This document shows, piece after piece, positions 5,292 through 34,007 of a stretch of DNA of 41,346 nt. How positions within the stretch are numbered: the stretch's first letter is position 1; every line of letters starts with the position of its first letter. This stretch comes from a virus: the UHGV virus genome UHGV-0007810; one strand, given 5' to 3'. A model generated the notes under the pieces. That model was given only the letters and a program-made list of their open reading frames with translations. It searched no databases and was not told the DNA's origin. Made by a program: the position numbers and the translations under genes.

Positions 5292-5876
5292 TTATTGTTT
5301 GTTTTTTTCGTTCTGGTTGATGACAAATTCAATGTAACTTTCGATCTTTGCTTTCTCGGTTTCGGGTAACAATGCGTAGCGCGAGCGGTCATAGTTGATG
5401 GTCGCAGGGTCGTGCGGGTGAATCAGTAATTCATAGCCGTGACGCCCGAATGCGGATGCAACATTCTCCAGGGTGGAAATGGAAACGCTGACCTCATTGT
5501 TTAACAGGCGACTGATTGTCACCTGGGCGACGCCGGATGCGCGGTGAAGTTTTCCCTGCGTTGAAAGGTCGCGGCTTTCGCTCATCCAGCGTTCCAGGTT
5601 GTGAGCCGCCAGCTGACCAATGTCGCTTGGGCCGACAGGCTGAAAACCTTCCTGAGAAAGCGAGCGATCGATATCAAGCCAGTTACGGGGTTTATTGGCG
5701 GCAGCTTCAATTTTTCGTGCAACCTGGTCGCCGATAACCTTCTTGCCAAGAGCCCAGCGGTTTACCAGATTTGCCTGAGTTCCAAGTTTTTCTGCCATCC
5801 GCGTCTGAACACCATTGAATTCACGGTCGATCAAGTCGTTGAGATTTTGCCTGCGGACGTCCTGGATACTTTTCAT
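5292..5876 (-). CDS. CI-like phage repressor with two helix-turn-helix regions, no LexA-like peptidase domain
   Basis: 194 aa; HTH-like segments near the N-terminus (QTRMAEKLGTQANLVNRW) and the middle (ASGVAQVTISRLLNNE); divergent from the cro-like gene; no G-D-S-M / Ser-Lys cleavage-domain signature seen. Confidence 0.7.
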   Translation of the reverse strand: MKSIQDVRRQNLNDLIDREFNGVQTRMAEKLGTQANLVNRWALGKKVIGDQVARKIEAAANKPRNWLDIDRSLSQEGFQPVGPSDIGQLAAHNLERWMSESRDLSTQGKLHRASGVAQVTISRLLNNEVSVSISTLENVASAFGRHGYELLIHPHDPATINYDRSRYALLPETEKAKIESYIEFVINQNEKNKQ

Positions 5877-13506: not shown

Positions 13507-13878
13507 TTATTGCTCGCTTAACTTCTGCTTCAGCAAGTAACCTTCAAGCATCCAGATTTTGTTTACAGCATTCTGCCGGGCAATCTTCCGACCAATTTCT
13601 GCATCAAAGTTTTCCGGGCTTGCACAGGCGCTCTCTCCGGTGACGGTGAAGCCGTTGCGCAGCACCAGGACGCAGAACGTCAGCAGAGAAAGTGATTCGT
13701 GCGGCTGGTAGTTTACATATCCGCCAGTATGTTTCGCTTTTATGGCTTTGCCAAAGGCACCATCCTCTGCTGTGAAATATGCCTCCTGAGCAATAATGCT
13801 TTCGATATGGTCTGGCGTAACGCGCGGAGCAGTTTTGCCTTTCTCAACGATTTCTTTTTCGATTTGCTGGTCGTTCAT
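13507..13878 (-). CDS. Hypothetical phage protein (possibly Sf6 gp66 / N4 gp49-like family)
   Basis: 123 aa; AAGGTGA Shine-Dalgarno; central GFTVTGESACASPENFDAEIGRKIA resembles that family as recalled. Confidence 0.55.
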   Translation of the reverse strand: MNDQQIEKEIVEKGKTAPRVTPDHIESIIAQEAYFTAEDGAFGKAIKAKHTGGYVNYQPHESLSLLTFCVLVLRNGFTVTGESACASPENFDAEIGRKIARQNAVNKIWMLEGYLLKQKLSEQ

Positions 13879-14475: not shown

Positions 14476-14490
14476 TTACCTGAAAGGTAA
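14476..14490. promoter_or_regulatory. Operator-like palindrome TTACCTGAAAGGTAA
   Basis: Exact; about 90 nt upstream of the small ORF that precedes the portal gene. Confidence 0.55.
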
Positions 14491-26280: not shown

Positions 26281-28079
26281 GTTACTTTGGCCTTAATCCA
26301 GTAAACCAGAATCAGCAGCTTGACGAAGCAGCATCAAATCCAGCGGGCTTTAACAGCGATGTTGGTTTTTTCGACAATGCTGTAGGAGCGGCATTGTCTG
26401 GTTTGTACTCCGGGCTGGTGGCAAAGCCAGACCAGTTGCTATGGGCAGGAATGGATAAAATCGTATCCCCGATTGCTCAGTTTGTTAACGAAAACACCTC
26501 GTTCAATGATACTTCAGTTTCATACATTGCCGAGCAGAGAAAACTAGCAGAGCAGCAGGTTAAGCGGCTGACGCCTGATGCGGCGACAACCGGAACCGCC
26601 GGGCAGGTCCTTTATGGGTTGTTCGATATGGGCGGGCAGGCTGTTGTCGGTACAACGCTCGGTGGTCCGGTCGGAGGTGCTGCGGCGGTAACTTCGCTAC
26701 AGGGTTTTTCTGAGTTTGAACGGCTGACAGCACAGGGTGTTGATTTCAGGACGGCGCAGGAAGCGGGATTAGTGCAGGGTATTACTGCTGGTGCCGGAAC
26801 ACTGATCCCTATGAGCCTCGGGTTACGTGCTGGTGGTGCGCTGGCGGAAGGTGTGGCGGCTCAGCTTGCGCGGACGGGTGAAAGTTCAGTGCGACGCGCC
26901 GCAGCAACAGCAGTACGTGCAACGCCAGATATTGCCTATGCCGCAGGTACAAATATTGCGTTCGGTATGGCACAGCGTGGGCTTACTGCAAAAACGCTTC
27001 GTGATGGTGGCTATAGCGAAATGGCTAACCAGTATGATGTGTTGGATCGACAGGCAATTGCTATTGATGCTGTTCTTGGGGTGGCGTTTGGTGGTGTCGG
27101 CAGATTTATTAACTCTCGCGGCGAGTCTACAAACGCACCAAATTTTTCACCAGTTGATGTCGATGCTGCACTGGCGGCGAATGCCGCTCATCATGCTGAA
27201 ATTGATATTGCGCCCGGCGTGCCGATCAACGTGCTTTCGCGCAATTCTCACATTCAGGCTCTGCGAAAAGCTATGTCTGATGTTAGCCAGGGGAGACCTG
27301 TAGACGTTGCCAGCATTGTTGAGTCTGCATCTTTCAGTGAAATTCCTGGGCGCAAGAGTCTGCTGTCTCAGGCAGTTAATGAGGCTCTGTCATCTGTAGA
27401 TGATGGAGTAACGGCGCGCGCTATAGAAAATCGGTTGCTTGAAGAACAGGCCGCGCAGCTTTTGCCGCGTGGAGATAGACAGGTTTACCAGTCTGAAATC
27501 GCTAATAGCCAACGAATTATTGAAAATCTCACTAAACAGCGTGCACAAATTCTTGCAGAAGAGCCAACCGGTAGCGGTAAAGCTTTGTCTCGTGCTCGAT
27601 CAGATAAACAGGCCAGACTTCGCGATATTGACCAACGAATCCGGCAGGCACAAGAACGCCTGGAATTTTCCCGTAACGCGTTGGCACCGCATGAGCCTGG
27701 CGGTCAGTTTTTTGAAGCTCGAGCAGAACTGGCACGGAGACAGCAGGCTGAAAGTGAACTTAATGCTCAGGCTGTTTCATTCTATAAAACAGCAGAGGTC
27801 AGGACGCCAGACGAAGTAGCTCCTTTTGAGCCTGATAAAATATTGCAACAGGCAGAACAAAAAATGATGGCGGATCAGGCAGGAGATATTGATCTGCGCA
27901 TAGCTGAAGACTCGCTGCTTGAATCACCTGACATGATAATCACCGTGCTGGATGATGATGGTAATCCACAATCGCGCAGCGCGCGTGAAGTACTGGATGA
28001 AGCGAACAGGGAAAGTGAGCAGGCAATACAGGATTCCAGCCTGTTTGATGTCGCTGTGGCGTGTTTCTTGAGAGGTTAA
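26277..28079 (+). CDS. Internal virion / ejection protein
   Basis: 600 aa; ATGA overlap with the upstream gene; Ala/Gly-rich N-terminal half, coiled-coil C-terminal half. Confidence 0.55.
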   Translation: MSYFGLNPVNQNQQLDEAASNPAGFNSDVGFFDNAVGAALSGLYSGLVAKPDQLLWAGMDKIVSPIAQFVNENTSFNDTSVSYIAEQRKLAEQQVKRLTPDAATTGTAGQVLYGLFDMGGQAVVGTTLGGPVGGAAAVTSLQGFSEFERLTAQGVDFRTAQEAGLVQGITAGAGTLIPMSLGLRAGGALAEGVAAQLARTGESSVRRAAATAVRATPDIAYAAGTNIAFGMAQRGLTAKTLRDGGYSEMANQYDVLDRQAIAIDAVLGVAFGGVGRFINSRGESTNAPNFSPVDVDAALAANAAHHAEIDIAPGVPINVLSRNSHIQALRKAMSDVSQGRPVDVASIVESASFSEIPGRKSLLSQAVNEALSSVDDGVTARAIENRLLEEQAAQLLPRGDRQVYQSEIANSQRIIENLTKQRAQILAEEPTGSGKALSRARSDKQARLRDIDQRIRQAQERLEFSRNALAPHEPGGQFFEARAELARRQQAESELNAQAVSFYKTAEVRTPDEVAPFEPDKILQQAEQKMMADQAGDIDLRIAEDSLLESPDMIITVLDDDGNPQSRSAREVLDEANRESEQAIQDSSLFDVAVACFLRG

Positions 28080-28084
28080 ATTAA

Positions 28085-30559
28085 ATGAGACAGGAATGTA
28101 TACAAGCGGTCCAGCAGGCGGCGCAGCGCACGTTAACGGCGCGAGAAATACAGAACATTGAAGACCGCATTTATCGAAATATGCGCTCCATTGCTCGTGA
28201 TGACCCGATGTCGTGGCGACAACTTTCCGAATCAGAACGGTTGTATCGTGCAGCACAATTGGCATCTGAAGAATTACAGCGAGAAGCGGCATTAAAGAAA
28301 CGTCGTGTGGCTCTCACTATAGCCGCACGTCAGAGATTGGATAAATTTATCAATAGCTATCAAGGGGCTGATGGGAAACTTGGCGCTCTTAACCGTACTA
28401 TTGCTTTTAATGCAGACGGTAAATCGAATTTCCTCTCTGTTGAGTCCAGAACAAAAGCCACTCGTGATTATGCATTGAGTCAATTGCAGGAGGCATTCGA
28501 AGCAGTTGATCCTCGCTTTTTTGGCCTGTTTGAAGATGAAGCGGGCGTGCGTGACCTGGTATATGAAATGCGAGGGCAAAATACTGGCAATGCTAAAGCA
28601 AGAAAAGGTGCTAAGGCGTGGAGAGAAGTGACAGATCTACTCCGCCGCCGGTTTAATGATGCTGGTGGGGACATTGGCTATCTCGAAAACTGGGGGATCC
28701 CTCAACATCATTCTATGGAAAAGGTTGGGGCGGTATCAAAAGATAAATGGGTTAGCGATGTTATAGGTAAGCTGGATCGCAAATATTATACCCGAGCCGA
28801 TGGACAACTGATGAACGATGCCGAGTTGTCTGCATTTCTTGGAGAGGCTTATAACACGATCGCTACTGGTGGGCTGAATAAGCTTACTGATACCGGAATG
28901 CGAATTTCCGGCGCACGTGCTAACCGTGGTAATGCATCACGACAGATACATTTCAAAGATGCAGATTCCTATCTGCAATATCAGCAACTTTATGGCGATC
29001 GCTCTCTATGGGAAATCATGGTCGGTCACCTGGAAGGTATCAGTAAAGATATTGCTCTGGTGGAAACATATGGTCCAAACCCCGATCATGTTTTCCGCTC
29101 CCTTCTTGATCAGGTTAAGGCAGAAACGGCAACAGCTAACCCGAGTAAAACCGGTAGCGTCGAGCGTCTGGCGAACAAAACAGAGAACTTGTACAACTTT
29201 ATTTCCGGAAAAACACAGCCTGTAGCGAATCCCCACATCGCGCGATGGTCTGACAATATCCGCAACTGGCTGGTTGCCAGCAGACTCGGATCCGCGTTGC
29301 TGTCATCGTTCTCTGATCTTGGAACCATGTATCTGTCTGCGAAGGTTACCAACCTTCCAATGAACCAGTTATTTCGCAACCAGCTTGAAGCTATGGACCC
29401 AACGAACCGTACTGAGCTTGCGCGGGCGCGCCGCGCTGGCCTGGCGATGGAATCTCTACTTGGCAGCGTTAACCGCTGGGCGATGGATAATATGGGGCCG
29501 TCTGTGTCTCGTTGGGCGGCAACGGCGGTAATGCGTGCCAGTGGGCTTACAGCATGGTCAGATGCGCACAAGCGCGCCTATGGCGTAACCATGATGGGAA
29601 GCCTGGGAGAAGTAGTGTCACGGACACCAGACCTTCGTAGCCTCGATGACTCTGATTTTCGTATCCTGAAAAGTAAAGGGATTACTGACACAGACTGGAG
29701 CGTATGGAAGCTGGCGCAACAGGAGGACTGGGGGAACGGTAATAATACGATGCTGACACCGGAAAGCATTATGCGTATCCCTGATTCAGCAGTTAAACAT
29801 CTTGGTGAGCCTGAACGCGTGAAATTTGAGGCAATGCGTAAACTGCTCGGTGCCGTAACTGAAGAAGTTGATATGGCTGTTATTACACCGGGCGCACGTG
29901 AGCAGATGTTCGTAGGGTCTGGTCTTCAGCGTGGAACATGGAAAGGTGAATTAACGAGAAGTGTTTTCCTGTTTAAATCGTTCCCTATCTCGGTTGTTAT
30001 GCGTCACTGGTCACGCGCTATGGGTATGCCGTCTGCTGGTGGGCGTGCAGCATATATAGCAACGTTTTTAGCAAGCACAACCATGCTTGGTGCTCTTTCC
30101 ATGCAGATTACTGATCTTATTAATGGGAGAAATCCAAAGGAAATGACCGGTGACCACATGGTTAAATTCTGGATAAATGCATTTTTAAAAGGTGGCGGGG
30201 CTGGGTTGTACGGTGATTTTCTTTTCTCTGACCACACTAGGTACGGGAGCGGCGCGCTGGCGTCGATGCTTGGCCCGGTAGCTGGTCTGGTTGATGATGT
30301 AGTGAAGATTACTCAGGGCATACCGTTAAATGCTGTGGAAGGGAAGAGTGAGCAGACTGGTGGTGATCTGGTGAAGCTGGGGAAAGGTTTGATGCCTGGT
30401 GCGAATCTCTGGTACTTGAAGGCGGCTCTCGATCACATGATCTTTAACCAGATGCAGGAGTATTTTTCACCAGGTTATTTGCGTAAAATGGAGCAACGTT
30501 CGAAGAAAGAGTTTAACCAGACATACTGGTGGCGACCACAGGATGTCACTCCGCAATAA
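28085..30559 (+). CDS. Internal virion / ejection protein (T7 gp16-position)
   Basis: 824 aa; last and largest of the ejection-protein block; hydrophobic stretch near residues 640-680. Confidence 0.55.
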   Translation: MRQECIQAVQQAAQRTLTAREIQNIEDRIYRNMRSIARDDPMSWRQLSESERLYRAAQLASEELQREAALKKRRVALTIAARQRLDKFINSYQGADGKLGALNRTIAFNADGKSNFLSVESRTKATRDYALSQLQEAFEAVDPRFFGLFEDEAGVRDLVYEMRGQNTGNAKARKGAKAWREVTDLLRRRFNDAGGDIGYLENWGIPQHHSMEKVGAVSKDKWVSDVIGKLDRKYYTRADGQLMNDAELSAFLGEAYNTIATGGLNKLTDTGMRISGARANRGNASRQIHFKDADSYLQYQQLYGDRSLWEIMVGHLEGISKDIALVETYGPNPDHVFRSLLDQVKAETATANPSKTGSVERLANKTENLYNFISGKTQPVANPHIARWSDNIRNWLVASRLGSALLSSFSDLGTMYLSAKVTNLPMNQLFRNQLEAMDPTNRTELARARRAGLAMESLLGSVNRWAMDNMGPSVSRWAATAVMRASGLTAWSDAHKRAYGVTMMGSLGEVVSRTPDLRSLDDSDFRILKSKGITDTDWSVWKLAQQEDWGNGNNTMLTPESIMRIPDSAVKHLGEPERVKFEAMRKLLGAVTEEVDMAVITPGAREQMFVGSGLQRGTWKGELTRSVFLFKSFPISVVMRHWSRAMGMPSAGGRAAYIATFLASTTMLGALSMQITDLINGRNPKEMTGDHMVKFWINAFLKGGGAGLYGDFLFSDHTRYGSGALASMLGPVAGLVDDVVKITQGIPLNAVEGKSEQTGGDLVKLGKGLMPGANLWYLKAALDHMIFNQMQEYFSPGYLRKMEQRSKKEFNQTYWWRPQDVTPQ

Positions 30560-31060: not shown

Positions 31061-31085
31061 AGGCCGCTTTCGCGGCCTTGTTTTT
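31061..31085 (+). terminator. Rho-independent terminator after the membrane-protein gene
   Basis: AGGCCGC-TTTC-GCGGCCT followed by TGTTTTT. Confidence 0.65.
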
Positions 31086-31245
31086 AACGAATGCCACCGC
31101 CACCCGGGCGGGAATCCGCAGAACGCCCACCGCAGCGGGAGCCGTCAGCGGCAGTATCGCTGTCGTGCTGACAACGACCGGCAAAGGCCTGAGTTGAAGC
31201 TACCAGAGACAACAAAACGAACAGTGCAGCAAATGCTTTTTTCAT
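31084..31245 (-). CDS. Possible small secreted peptide (53 aa with signal-peptide-like N-terminus)
   Basis: MKKAFAALFVLLSLVASTQAFA followed by a 31-aa Cys-containing tail; GC-rich segment, and the opposite strand also has an ORF, so coding status is uncertain. Confidence 0.3.
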   Translation of the reverse strand: MKKAFAALFVLLSLVASTQAFAGRCQHDSDTAADGSRCGGRSADSRPGGGGIR

Positions 31246-31313
31246 TGTGAAATTTCCATCTATAATCCACCTCAATGTGGCGTCAATGAGTGTAGCACTG
31301 ACTTTTGTTTCGT

Positions 31314-31338
31314 CCACAAAAAAGCCCGCGGCGCGGGC
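31314..31338 (-). terminator. Rho-independent terminator after the AT-rich gene
   Basis: GCCCGCG / CGCGGGC stem with an 8-nt A-run on the + strand (T-run on the - strand). Confidence 0.6.
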
Positions 31339-31884
31339 TTATTCCTTCCATTTATCAGAAAAAAGATCTTCTTCTAAAGGCATTGGTTCTGTTTTTGTTT
31401 TCTCAAAGAATTGATAACTGATAGTGATTGCTGCCTCTTTAAACTCTTCTTGCTCAGTTATGTTGTGGGCATCTGCGTCAACAAAAAACATAACCAGCGC
31501 ATCACGATTGTGATTTACCGAATAAACTAAAAAGCAATTACTTGTTGGTATGCATTTTACTTGCACAGACGCTATTTTTTTCCATGCATCCCAAGATGAT
31601 TTTTTACCAGTGTGTTTTTTATCACTATCTTCTGGAATATAGTCTTGGTTATCGACATGAGTATGCCTGACATTTAGTTTAAGCATTTCTGTCGGACGAG
31701 CAAATGCAGCATCTTTACCAAGAGATGGATGGTATCCCGTTTTCCAATACTGGGTAAAGGCATCAGATACTTTCTTCAGCTCAAGATCAGATGCACAAAG
31801 GGCCGAGAAATTTTGCGTATGCAATACTCGACCCTTATATCTGACAATTTGATTTTTATCATTCTGCGACGCAGACGAACTCAT
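31339..31884 (-). CDS. Hypothetical protein with possible YafO-like toxin domain (AT-rich moron)
   Basis: About 181 aa from ATG 31884 (AAGGAAA 5 nt upstream); visibly AT-rich relative to the surrounding DNA; GYHPSLGKDAAF...VRHTHV...FLVYSV resembles YafO-family toxins as recalled (unverified). Confidence 0.55.
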   Translation of the reverse strand: MSSSASQNDKNQIVRYKGRVLHTQNFSALCASDLELKKVSDAFTQYWKTGYHPSLGKDAAFARPTEMLKLNVRHTHVDNQDYIPEDSDKKHTGKKSSWDAWKKIASVQVKCIPTSNCFLVYSVNHNRDALVMFFVDADAHNITEQEEFKEAAITISYQFFEKTKTEPMPLEEDLFSDKWKE

Positions 31885-32038
31885 AATTTTCCTTATTGTT
31901 ACGAGAATCAAAGAAAGCGCGGGATACGCGACTTGCGTGATCTTTTGTCATAGTAACTTTTACGCACTCTACGCTTCCATTGAAAGAACGTCTTGCGGCA
32001 GCTTGCGCTCTACGCATCTGCAATTTTTCGTTTCGCAT
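31859..32038 (-). CDS. Hypothetical small basic protein (59 aa) upstream of the YafO-like gene
   Basis: Not in the ORF track; hand-translated MRNEKLQMRRAQAAARRSFNGSVECVKVTMTKDHASRVSRAFFDSRNNKENYEFVCVAE; GAGGT Shine-Dalgarno 7 nt upstream; overlaps the downstream gene by 26 nt. Confidence 0.3.
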   Translation of the reverse strand: MRNEKLQMRRAQAAARRSFNGSVECVKVTMTKDHASRVSRAFFDSRNNKENYEFVCVAE

Positions 32039-32098
32039 GACATTACCTCATATCTCATAAGTTCATTACACGGATTAATAAAAATGAAACCAATCCGT

Positions 32099-32113
32099 TT
32101 ACCCTTGAGGTAA
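32099..32113. promoter_or_regulatory. Operator-like palindrome TTACCCTTGAGGTAA
   Basis: Exact; in the promoter region of the leftward small-ORF / YafO-like unit. Confidence 0.55.
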
Positions 32114-32161
32114 TAGTACGCTATTCACCCACAGTCTGCAATCTGTACAGAATTATTTAAA

Positions 32162-32177
32162 GGCACATCCCTGTGCC
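32162..32177 (-). terminator. Terminator-like hairpin after the Bro-N gene
   Basis: GGCACA-TCCC-TGTGCC 9 nt beyond the stop, followed on the - strand by a T/A-rich stretch. Confidence 0.35.
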
Positions 32178-32185
32178 GCCGCCCG

Positions 32186-32881
32186 TCAGAAGAACCCTGC
32201 CTTGTCGTTGATGTACTCCGCGTGCGTCTGGATATCACGCAGGCATTTGCTCACACCGACGATGTAGCAGAACATGGTGGTCAGCTCCGCCGCCGCGCCC
32301 GATACGTCGTGCCCGTCGTCCTGTAACTGGTTCAGCAGATTCATCAGCAGTGAGTTCTCCGTCAGGCCGAGAACACCAGACGGCGAATGAATCAGGCTGC
32401 GGTAGCCGGGCTTCAGTGGGGCACTGTAGGTTTTGTTCTCTATCTTCATCGCCTGCATCACTGCTGATGCTGTGGCGTTGGCTACCTGGTCGGCAACCAT
32501 CTTTATGCGCTCTTCCTGCGGGAGCGAGTTTTTAATGTAACTTCCGGTGCGGCGGATCTGAGGAAGAACCTCACCTGTAACCCATTTACGAAAGCGGTAT
32601 GGGATAGTGCCTGGTGTCACTGCGTCGCGGCAGCGGAGGATCAGTGTGTAGAGGCCTGACTCGGAGATGATGATCGATTCTTGCTCACCGCCAGGGGTGT
32701 CGGTTGAAGCGACGCCCTTCTCATCATCATCAAGTTTTCGAACAGCATCTCGATGGTTTGCTATGCCTATAGCCCGACAAACATCTGAAGCGATAAACCA
32801 TGGCTCACCATTAATGACGATTACTCGTATATCGGCTTGGGATTCGAAAGAAAAAATGGACGTGCTTTTTGTAGCTGTCAT
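32186..32881 (-). CDS. Bro-N domain protein (antirepressor-like), C-terminal domain paralogous to 34029..34286
   Basis: 231 aa; N-terminal FESQADIRVIVINGEPWFIASDVCRAIGIANHRDAVRKL is a classic Bro-N signature; C-terminal ~70 aa align with the small LexA-box gene product. Confidence 0.75.
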   Translation of the reverse strand: MTATKSTSIFSFESQADIRVIVINGEPWFIASDVCRAIGIANHRDAVRKLDDDEKGVASTDTPGGEQESIIISESGLYTLILRCRDAVTPGTIPYRFRKWVTGEVLPQIRRTGSYIKNSLPQEERIKMVADQVANATASAVMQAMKIENKTYSAPLKPGYRSLIHSPSGVLGLTENSLLMNLLNQLQDDGHDVSGAAAELTTMFCYIVGVSKCLRDIQTHAEYINDKAGFF

Positions 32882-33243: not shown

Positions 33244-33258
33244 TTACCTTTAAGGTAA
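33244..33258. promoter_or_regulatory. Operator-like palindrome TTACCTTTAAGGTAA
   Basis: Exact; 20 nt upstream of the ATG at 33279. Confidence 0.55.
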
Positions 33259-33278: not shown

Positions 33279-34007
33279 ATGGAAGTTTTCTGGATAGTTG
33301 TTGGTGTTGTTACGGTGATTATTTACGTTATCAACCAGAACAGGACTAAGGTCTCTGATCGCACAGTCGTTAATCATCGCAAAACGATAAAGACCGAAGA
33401 TGGAGAAATAACGATTAATCGTACACAGGTGATAGACCACACCTCCACTCAGTTTCAAAAAACTGGAGGTAATGCGCCTAATATTTCCGCACCTCCTGCT
33501 TATGATAGTGCGGTAATCCAGACATATTATAAACAGCAGGAGTTAGCAAAAGAGAGGCAACTGATTCAGCCAAAGCCATTTACAGCAGAGCTTCCACCTG
33601 GAGTGTCAACGCGTCCGGCATATCATGGAAGATTCCCTGGTGATGACATATCGTCTCAGTCATCTAAAAAAGCACCTCAGGCAGTATCAGAGCCAGCAAG
33701 AATACCTTCTGTATCGCCGCCAAAAGAAGAATCAGCTAACAGAGTTTCAAGTGGTAGCAAGCAGTGCTTGCGATGCAGAATAAACCTTCCATATGAAAAA
33801 TTCAGGAAATCGTCAAAAAATCCAGATGGATTGACTAAGTGGTGTGCAAGGTGTCTCGATGGTCCAAAGAATACACGCCATATGAAGTGGTGCCCAATTT
33901 GTAATGTCCGCAGAAAACGAACCAGCTTTTACCCTAATAATCAAAATGCGGATGGCTTAATGGCATGGTGCAAAACGTGCTGGGACGAGCACAAAGCGAA
34001 ACGATAG
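33279..34007 (+). CDS. Membrane-anchored protein with tandem C-x2-C ... WC-x2-C zinc-ribbon-like repeats
   Basis: 242 aa; N-terminal TM helix (FWIVVGVVTVIIYVI), Pro/Ser-rich linker, two repeats CLRCR...DGLTKWCARC and CPICN...DGLMAWCKTC. Confidence 0.6.
   Translation: MEVFWIVVGVVTVIIYVINQNRTKVSDRTVVNHRKTIKTEDGEITINRTQVIDHTSTQFQKTGGNAPNISAPPAYDSAVIQTYYKQQELAKERQLIQPKPFTAELPPGVSTRPAYHGRFPGDDISSQSSKKAPQAVSEPARIPSVSPPKEESANRVSSGSKQCLRCRINLPYEKFRKSSKNPDGLTKWCARCLDGPKNTRHMKWCPICNVRRKRTSFYPNNQNADGLMAWCKTCWDEHKAKR

Follow-up and report, generated by a model that had tools for sequence, protein, structure and literature searches.

Among the systems that most resemble the gene pair discussed here is YafN-YafO of Escherichia coli (PF13957), encoded in the SOS-regulated dinB-yafN-yafO-yafP operon. 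YafO cleaves translated mRNA, YafN neutralizes YafO and autoregulates the operon, and induction is Lon-dependent (PMC2814082). YafO is one of the 13 BECR monodomain toxin families, with antitoxin-toxin gene order (PMC11980606), and its ribosome dependence has since been questioned (PMC8546651, PMC11980606). In a survey of E. coli, known antitoxins made up only 8% of the partners of YafO-domain toxins (PMC10790755). The pair that we have analyzed lies in the virus genome UHGV-0007810, a stretch of 41,346 nucleotides (nt) referred to below as the window, which represents an epsilon15/phiV10-like (Uetakevirus-type) prophage encoding an integrase, a helix-turn-helix repressor, a portal protein, a GP7-type capsid protein and a tailspike. 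The minus strand carries both genes of the pair: a small open reading frame (ORF) of 59 amino acids (aa), running from the ATG at 32038 to the stop at 31859, overlaps by 26 nt a downstream gene for a 181-aa protein (ATG 31884, stop 31339), and the frame of this candidate toxin gene is +1 relative to that of the small ORF. An earlier note, made from the sequence alone, had described an AT-rich two-gene unit with a basic small ORF at this place, and it was correct in every detail: the GC content of 31339-32038 is 38.7% (toxin gene 37.4%, small ORF 44.4%) versus 48.8% for the whole window, and the small protein has an isoelectric point of 9.9. We favor, with a probability of roughly 60%, the interpretation that this is a type II toxin-antitoxin-like pair, in which a long-form YafO mRNase is combined with a new minimal inhibitor whose activity resides in its C-terminal module, and that the prophage carries the pair as exchangeable cargo controlled by the phage repressor.

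How far does the likeness to YafN-YafO extend? The toxins are homologous and have sequence motifs in common, both systems are compact bicistrons, and the antitoxin gene is upstream of the toxin gene in E. coli as the candidate partner gene is here. However, the toxin in the window is ~50 residues longer, yafN and yafO are 2 nt apart whereas the two genes here overlap, and the pair is phage-borne, behind a promoter with a predicted phage repressor operator, rather than part of an SOS-regulated operon. The ribosome-dependent mRNases HigB2, HigB, RelE, YoeB and YafQ, which belong to the RelE/ParE superfamily and have the BECR fold, exhibit only 4-15% sequence identity to the 181-aa protein; HigB-type loci have the toxin-antitoxin gene order, the opposite of the order found here, and their antitoxins are unrelated. 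By description only, the pair can be likened to a yafO-like gene in the Salmonella prophage mTmII, which was proposed to be part of a toxin-antitoxin system that is possibly linked to phage resistance; it is also prophage-borne, its partner is described as ydaS-like, and the gene is mentioned in that study but not characterized (PMC9836087). We found no characterization of the pair in the window in the literature.

The YafO-family protein and its overlapping partner

The resemblance to YafO, which the earlier note had proposed, is borne out by homology searches and by structure prediction. In a hidden Markov model search, residues 46-148 of the 181-aa protein match positions 3-88 of the 101 positions of Pfam YafO_toxin (PF13957) with 23.4 bits and an E-value of 6.6e-5, the cut-off being 25 bits; two relatives, P0049 and P0053, exceed that threshold with 26.5 and 28.1 bits, and the 98%-identical cluster P0001 is a precomputed PF13957 hit. 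A profile of the long-form family retrieves 70 representatives at E-values up to 1e-3 among 1.84 billion, and the weakest of these matches are canonical YafO proteins of 131-132 aa, which score 83-93 bits on PF13957. When 43 long-form sequences were aligned by hhalign with 14 canonical YafO sequences, a set itself retrieved by the long-form profile, the probability of relationship was 99.9% (E 3.1e-31, 131 columns), and the two forms share the motifs FK.YW..G, G(K/R)D...RP, RH.H, TSD..L.Y and AH. AlphaFold2, with a 31-sequence alignment, models the 181-aa protein with a mean predicted local distance difference test score (pLDDT) of 89.2 and a predicted template modeling score of 0.85, and the predicted fold is the RelE/HigB-like α/β (BECR) fold of the RelE/ParE superfamily. 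Foldseek puts RelE/HigB-type proteins on top for this model, without significance, and gave no significant match to the viral structures of BFVD; a sequence search of solved structures returned nothing relevant, including any solved YafO structure with which the active site might be compared. There is no NCBIfam match, and the PHROGs assignment is phrog_1651, of unknown function. On this evidence, the 181-aa protein is, by homology and predicted structure, a divergent and longer member of the YafO family with the RelE/HigB (BECR) fold. RefSeq already calls it a 'type II toxin-antitoxin system YafO family toxin', and its novelty is to that extent lower than the earlier note had implied.

Compared with canonical YafO, the long form adds an N-terminal strand (YKGRV), a W..W insertion between RH.H and TSD, and a conserved acidic tail (PMPLEEDLFSDKW). 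It is rare: 35 clusters at 90% identity were found among 5.8 billion proteins, and the species-representative genome set contains 0 copies, compared with 8 canonical YafO loci. Five positions common to canonical YafO, H76, S115, Y121, R127 and H140, are invariant or nearly so across the 43 long-form sequences, and selection on the toxin gene is strongly purifying, the ratio of nonsynonymous to synonymous divergence (dN/dS) being 0.04-0.12.

Is the small ORF a gene? Its product matches phrog_6685 (E 1.4e-44), and its homologs fall into 13 clusters, all of the same length. At 50 of 50 related loci, an equivalent upstream ORF overlaps the toxin gene, ending inside it or at its start; these loci include 28-45% identical toxins in three other settings: a P22-like immunity-I region, a siphovirus tail module, and another epsilon15-like phage. 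In pairwise comparisons of the 50 codons of the small ORF that do not overlap the toxin gene (window 31889-32038), dN/dS is 0.17-0.36 in frame and mostly 0.8-4 in the other two frames (range 0.67-4.2). A chance ORF is excluded by this conservation of homologs and by the in-frame dN/dS, and the small ORF is a real gene under protein-level purifying selection. It is annotated as hypothetical gp45 in phage TL-2011b, and PGAP/RefSeq omits it in E. coli chromosomes. The gene layout, with a small upstream gene overlapping the toxin gene at all of these loci and in the distant plasmid and phage relatives, is that of a type II module. The antitoxin-toxin arrangement suspected by the earlier note thus gains from the strict co-conservation of both genes and loses from the small protein being unrelated to YafN. 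The sole disrupted copies seen (n = 2) fit toxin-antitoxin logic: in an IMG/VR copy (L050, 3001-3339) the toxin is truncated to 112 aa by a frameshift and the small ORF is intact, and in one NCBI genome (P0040) the small ORF is frameshifted after codon 32 and the toxin is frameshifted too.

The positive charge of the 59-aa protein is confined to residues 1-30 (the N-terminal half carries +4.5), with a basic N-terminal helix at residues 2-19. In a conserved C-terminal module, approximately residues 26-59, a hydrophobic strand (VKVTMT) leads into a helix, in which one Ser is invariant, and the module closes with acidic and aromatic residues (NYEFV..E). The ~30%-identical relatives that occur in phage EC.W1-9 and on plasmids of Klebsiella and Rahnella possess longer overlapping upstream genes encoding 113-139 aa, and the last ~30 residues of these partners align ungapped to the 59-aa protein, invariant Ser included. 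The N-terminal parts of the partner proteins differ among the distant relatives, the conserved portion being the C-terminal ~30 residues. A likeness between the acidic/aromatic C-terminus and that of YafN (NYEFV...E versus DDDFNDFKE) is an analogy only and does not indicate kinship.

Two of the distant loci have further features. In one (L052, 1630-2594), two tandem small ORFs of 71 and 55 aa, both with the C-terminal module, precede one toxin gene, and the first of them has an N-terminal segment resembling the strand-helix of ribbon-helix-helix proteins (KTIRMTDEHKQLLEKG). In the other, from EC.W1-9 (L056, 1059-1974; record 28067-28982), a 30%-identical YafO-like gene and its 139-aa overlapping upstream partner are found beside the tailspike gene, a second site in this phage, on the other strand, with a repressor palindrome ~165 nt upstream.

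A predicted phage repressor operator and the competing explanations

Upstream of the small ORF, on the minus strand, a putative -35 hexamer (TTGCAG, 32136..32141; TTGACG in L043 and L049) is separated by 17 nt from a putative -10 hexamer (TACTAT, 32113..32118; TAATAT in related loci), and the pair is followed directly by the palindrome TTACC-N5-GGTAA (32098..32114, core 32099-32113), which would cover approximately -7 to +8 of the promoter. In an alignment of the promoter regions of 8 diverged related loci, the palindrome is invariant, the -10 is conserved, and the -35, which is weak (3/6) and was missed by a consensus promoter scan, keeps a constant position. The palindrome is not particular to this promoter. 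There are 17 copies in the window (11 of them exact) versus 0.77 expected, at 136, 5158, 5220, 5932, 5980, 6317, 8263, 8325, 11316, 11334, 14476, 32099, 33151, 33244, 34363, 34595 and 37708; they are mostly intergenic and typically fused to a -10-like hexamer in constant register, and four are located at PL- and PR-like promoters on either side of the repressor gene at 5292-5876. In the record of phage epsilon15 (NC_004775), the annotation 'protein_bind, repressor, lysogeny' is given to sites with this sequence (ATTACC-N5-GGTAAT), and the repressor of the window is 42% identical to that of epsilon15. A related Uetakevirus repressor blocks lytic transcription and is counteracted by its Bro-N antirepressor (PMC9782041), and for the related SPC32H repressor, binding to palindromic DNA as a tetramer is summarized in PMC9638917. 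No published palindrome count for phiV10-type phages was found.

The placement of the copies in the window suggests a dispersed operator regulon that spans early, late and accessory promoters. The dispersed operators belong to the phage backbone rather than to the cassette, and epsilon15 has no YafO cassette in the part of the genome compared, including the corresponding tail-proximal region. The palindrome was considered as the operator of the antitoxin itself and rejected in view of its 17 copies and its match to the epsilon15 repressor sites; the only conserved palindrome at the cassette promoter is that of the phage-wide predicted repressor operator. Since the promoter palindrome is not cassette-specific and matches the epsilon15 lysogeny-repressor sites, the cassette is likely to be phage-regulated, with repressor binding here predicted from the sequence of the sites. 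A simple role in defense of the lysogen is therefore weakened. For abortive infection and superinfection exclusion, both entertained by the earlier note, we found no support, and the overlap of the palindrome with the promoter makes them less plausible.

In the toxin-antitoxin-like mechanism that we favor, transcription would begin at the weak sigma-70-type promoter, whose start site is covered by the predicted, dispersed lysogeny-repressor operator of the phage; the cassette would probably be repressed or damped in the lysogen and expressed once repression is lifted, upon infection or induction. The 59-aa protein would be translated first from the shared transcript, ending 26 nt inside the toxin gene, and would most likely bind and neutralize the toxin via its conserved C-terminal strand-helix-acidic/aromatic module, its basic N-terminal helix being a variable add-on. 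The 181-aa RelE/HigB-fold protein would most likely cleave mRNA and so block translation.

Several observations count against this mechanism. Most classical antitoxins are acidic, whereas the 59-aa protein as a whole is basic. It belongs to no Pfam, NCBIfam or PADLOC family and contains no recognizable DNA-binding or antitoxin domain, in particular no Phd/YefM domain as in YafN, to which it has no detectable relation (hhalign probability 0.2%); a YafN-type or other known antitoxin was rejected on this basis. Modeled alone by AlphaFold2, it gives a low-confidence structure (pLDDT 54.7), which fits a peptide that folds on binding, or merely a shallow alignment. The 181-aa protein is 1.6 bits under the Pfam gathering score, and neither protein matches any PADLOC-DB v2 defense model at E-values up to 1. 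The annotation of the epsilon15 repressor sites is the depositors' own, and its experimental basis was not found. Finally, a cassette that is turned off when lysogeny is established would, with a labile antitoxin, produce poisoned new lysogens; the favored mechanism thus calls for a stable inhibitor or for leaky repression, unless the classical toxin-antitoxin model applies only in part.

The alternative that survives best, although we consider it unlikely, is that the pair is not a classical toxin-antitoxin pair at all but a lytic-phase host-takeover RNase with a built-in modulator. The YafO-like protein would be produced early after infection or induction, as would the products of the other promoters under repressor control, and would break down the mRNA of the host or of competitors; the small protein, instead of being a labile antidote, would adjust the timing, dose or specificity of this RNase or serve as a chaperone. 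Such a role would suit the cassette operator, which is the same, and in the same register, as at the PL- and PR-like promoters beside the repressor gene, and the promoter-operator design that is shared by unrelated cargo in the genomic slot occupied by the cassette; it would avoid the self-harm of placing a labile antitoxin under a promoter silenced at lysogenization, and it is compatible with the conserved N- and C-terminal extensions of the long form, absent from chromosomal YafO. The pairs of other phages fit it poorly, however, as they are behind different promoters without the epsilon15 operator and with cassette-specific palindromes of 5-6 bp upstream of the small ORF (which could equally be RNA hairpins). 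Moreover, in the P22-like immunity region and the siphovirus tail module the pair resembles a classic lysogen-expressed accessory gene, and its relatives are found on plasmids too, as is typical of addiction modules.

A different question is raised by the nucleotide sequence of the small ORF. Its synonymous divergence (dS) is 0.22-0.74, compared with 0.69-2.85 for the toxin gene in the same genome pairs, i.e., 2-8 times lower, and GCCGCAAGACG, corresponding to small-ORF codons 14-17, is invariant, including third codon positions, and is predicted to pair with the start region of the small ORF itself (GAUGUCAUGCG). The low synonymous divergence and the invariant GCCGCAAGACG may reflect translational autoregulation or recent exchange. 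They would also suit a leader or regulatory element, whose translation controls that of the toxin gene through the 26-nt overlap and mRNA structure, or whose basic helix, in the N-terminal half charged +4.5, binds nucleic acid, the antidote being absent or encoded elsewhere. We regard this as rather improbable, given the clear protein-level purifying selection on the small ORF and the distant relatives, which keep the C-terminal peptide and not the nucleotide sequence, the length of the overlap (4 to 59 nt) or the basic helix. The hairpin that RNAalifold places over the small-ORF start has an unfavorable covariation term (+1.94) and a z-score of -1.6, and a conserved mRNA structure coupling both genes, lacking covariation support, remains unproven. 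A programmed frameshift fusing the two ORFs is likewise not favored: it would have to be a +1 shift, and the overlap length is variable among relatives.

Least probable is that the 181-aa protein is a catalytically inactive RelE-fold protein (e.g., a ribosome or RNA binder or an anti-defense decoy) in a non-toxic pair, for although its Pfam score is sub-threshold, YafO is atypical among RelE-like toxins with undefined catalytic residues (PMC8546651), and no solved YafO structure was found for comparison of the active site, the near-invariance of H76, S115, Y121, R127 and H140, the strong purifying selection on the toxin gene and its constant accompaniment by the small ORF argue otherwise.

Cassette boundaries and prophage setting

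The upstream boundary of the cassette is a hairpin read from the sequence after the Bro-N antirepressor gene (GGCACAGGGATGTGCC, 32162..32177, minus strand). Related loci keep it, A-T pairs of the stem being replaced by G-C pairs through compensatory changes (GGCGCAGGGACGCGCC in L036, GGCGCAGGGATGCGCC in L043), and it is probably the terminator of the preceding Bro-N gene. The ribosome-binding sites and the terminator that the earlier note assigned to the unit are present. The Shine-Dalgarno sequence of the small ORF, GAGG (32046..32049, minus strand), is 7 nt before the ATG, and TATGAGG is invariant in the 8-locus alignment; that of the toxin gene, AAGGA (31890..31894, minus strand), is located within the small ORF, and ATAAGG is likewise invariant. 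Directly after the toxin stop codon, an intrinsic terminator (AAGCCCGCG-CCG-CGGGCTT then TTTTGT; 31340-31322, minus strand), with an 8-bp stem containing 6 G-C pairs and a T-run, forms the downstream boundary, and one promoter and one terminator are predicted to serve the gene pair. A sub-threshold Rfam match to the Hfq-binding small RNA STnc560 (31234-31412, minus strand; 22.3 bits versus a gathering score of 55, E 0.04) extends from the toxin 3' end across the terminator into the region before the adjacent 53-aa gene, and is probably driven by the terminator. An RNA antitoxin or known RNA family was rejected, with only this match in Rfam and no tandem repeats.

The cassette has as neighbors the Bro-N antirepressor gene (32186-32881) upstream and a gene for a 53-aa membrane protein (31084-31245) downstream. 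Over window positions 31200-32200, phage TL-2011b is 98.8% identical to the window and some E. coli chromosomes are 100% identical; among 5,426 complete genomes, 61 carry at least 80% of the 1-kb stretch containing the cassette. Between the two neighboring genes, the slot at 31246-32185 is a cargo hot-spot. In phage EC.W1-9 (L058, 2640-3441) it is occupied by an overlapping pair encoding 108-aa and 167-aa DUF2335 membrane proteins, and in phage phiv142-3 (L057, 1791-2267) by two tiny ORFs, both sets unrelated to the YafO cassette and both behind the same operator-bearing promoter design. Because its GC content is ~10 points below that of the window, it is flanked by hairpins, and unrelated cargo is found in the same slot, the YafO cassette is probably a self-contained accessory unit, swappable prophage cargo in a slot wired into the phage repressor regulon.

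Two other genes of the window are associated with operator-bearing promoters. A 242-aa protein (33279-34007, plus strand; phrog_6762), with its own operator-bearing promoter at 33244, has repeated zinc-ribbon-like segments that match endonuclease VII, HNH and Lar-like PHROGs, and has a weak match to the Pfam Stc1 domain. A minus-strand gene between the terminase and portal genes (13507-13878) appears to have its own promoter, directed leftward (TAGACA, 18 nt, AATTAT) and joined to the repressor palindrome at 14476; it may be another accessory unit built on this design.

Implications for YafO-type toxins and their phage hosts

What does the pair add to the description of the YafO family? The toxin family, the fold, the gene order and the RefSeq gene name were already known; delineation of the long-form clade, a partner family unrelated to YafN and skipped by annotation, and the pair's apparent membership of a phage repressor regulon are new. 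Antitoxin swapping is common in the RelE/ParE superfamily, and the finding is therefore useful rather than surprising to the specialist. A more ambitious proposal, which we offer as speculative and on balance doubtful, is that the 59-aa protein founds an unrecognized family of minimal antitoxins, defined by the C-terminal module of ~30 residues with variable N-termini and by rare, mostly phage-borne long-form YafO partners, and that in Uetakevirus prophages the pair belongs to the immunity repressor regulon, so that the RNase, released at induction or infection, would shut off the host or act as a weapon between phages and would not be part of a lysogen-resident addiction or abortive-infection module.

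YafO is among the least understood RelE-like toxins: no solved structure was found, its catalytic residues are undefined and its ribosome dependence is disputed (PMC8546651, PMC11980606). What the cassette offers is a long-form clade that is well delimited and confidently modeled in structure, a candidate minimal partner, and a natural case of a toxin pair apparently under a phage repressor. The gain for annotation is small but real, namely that the small ORF should be called wherever the toxin is called. If toxicity and neutralization are true, the 59-aa protein would be a compact tool for mapping the inhibition of YafO-type toxins, and the cassette would test whether phage-borne toxin pairs serve lytic growth rather than defense of the lysogen.

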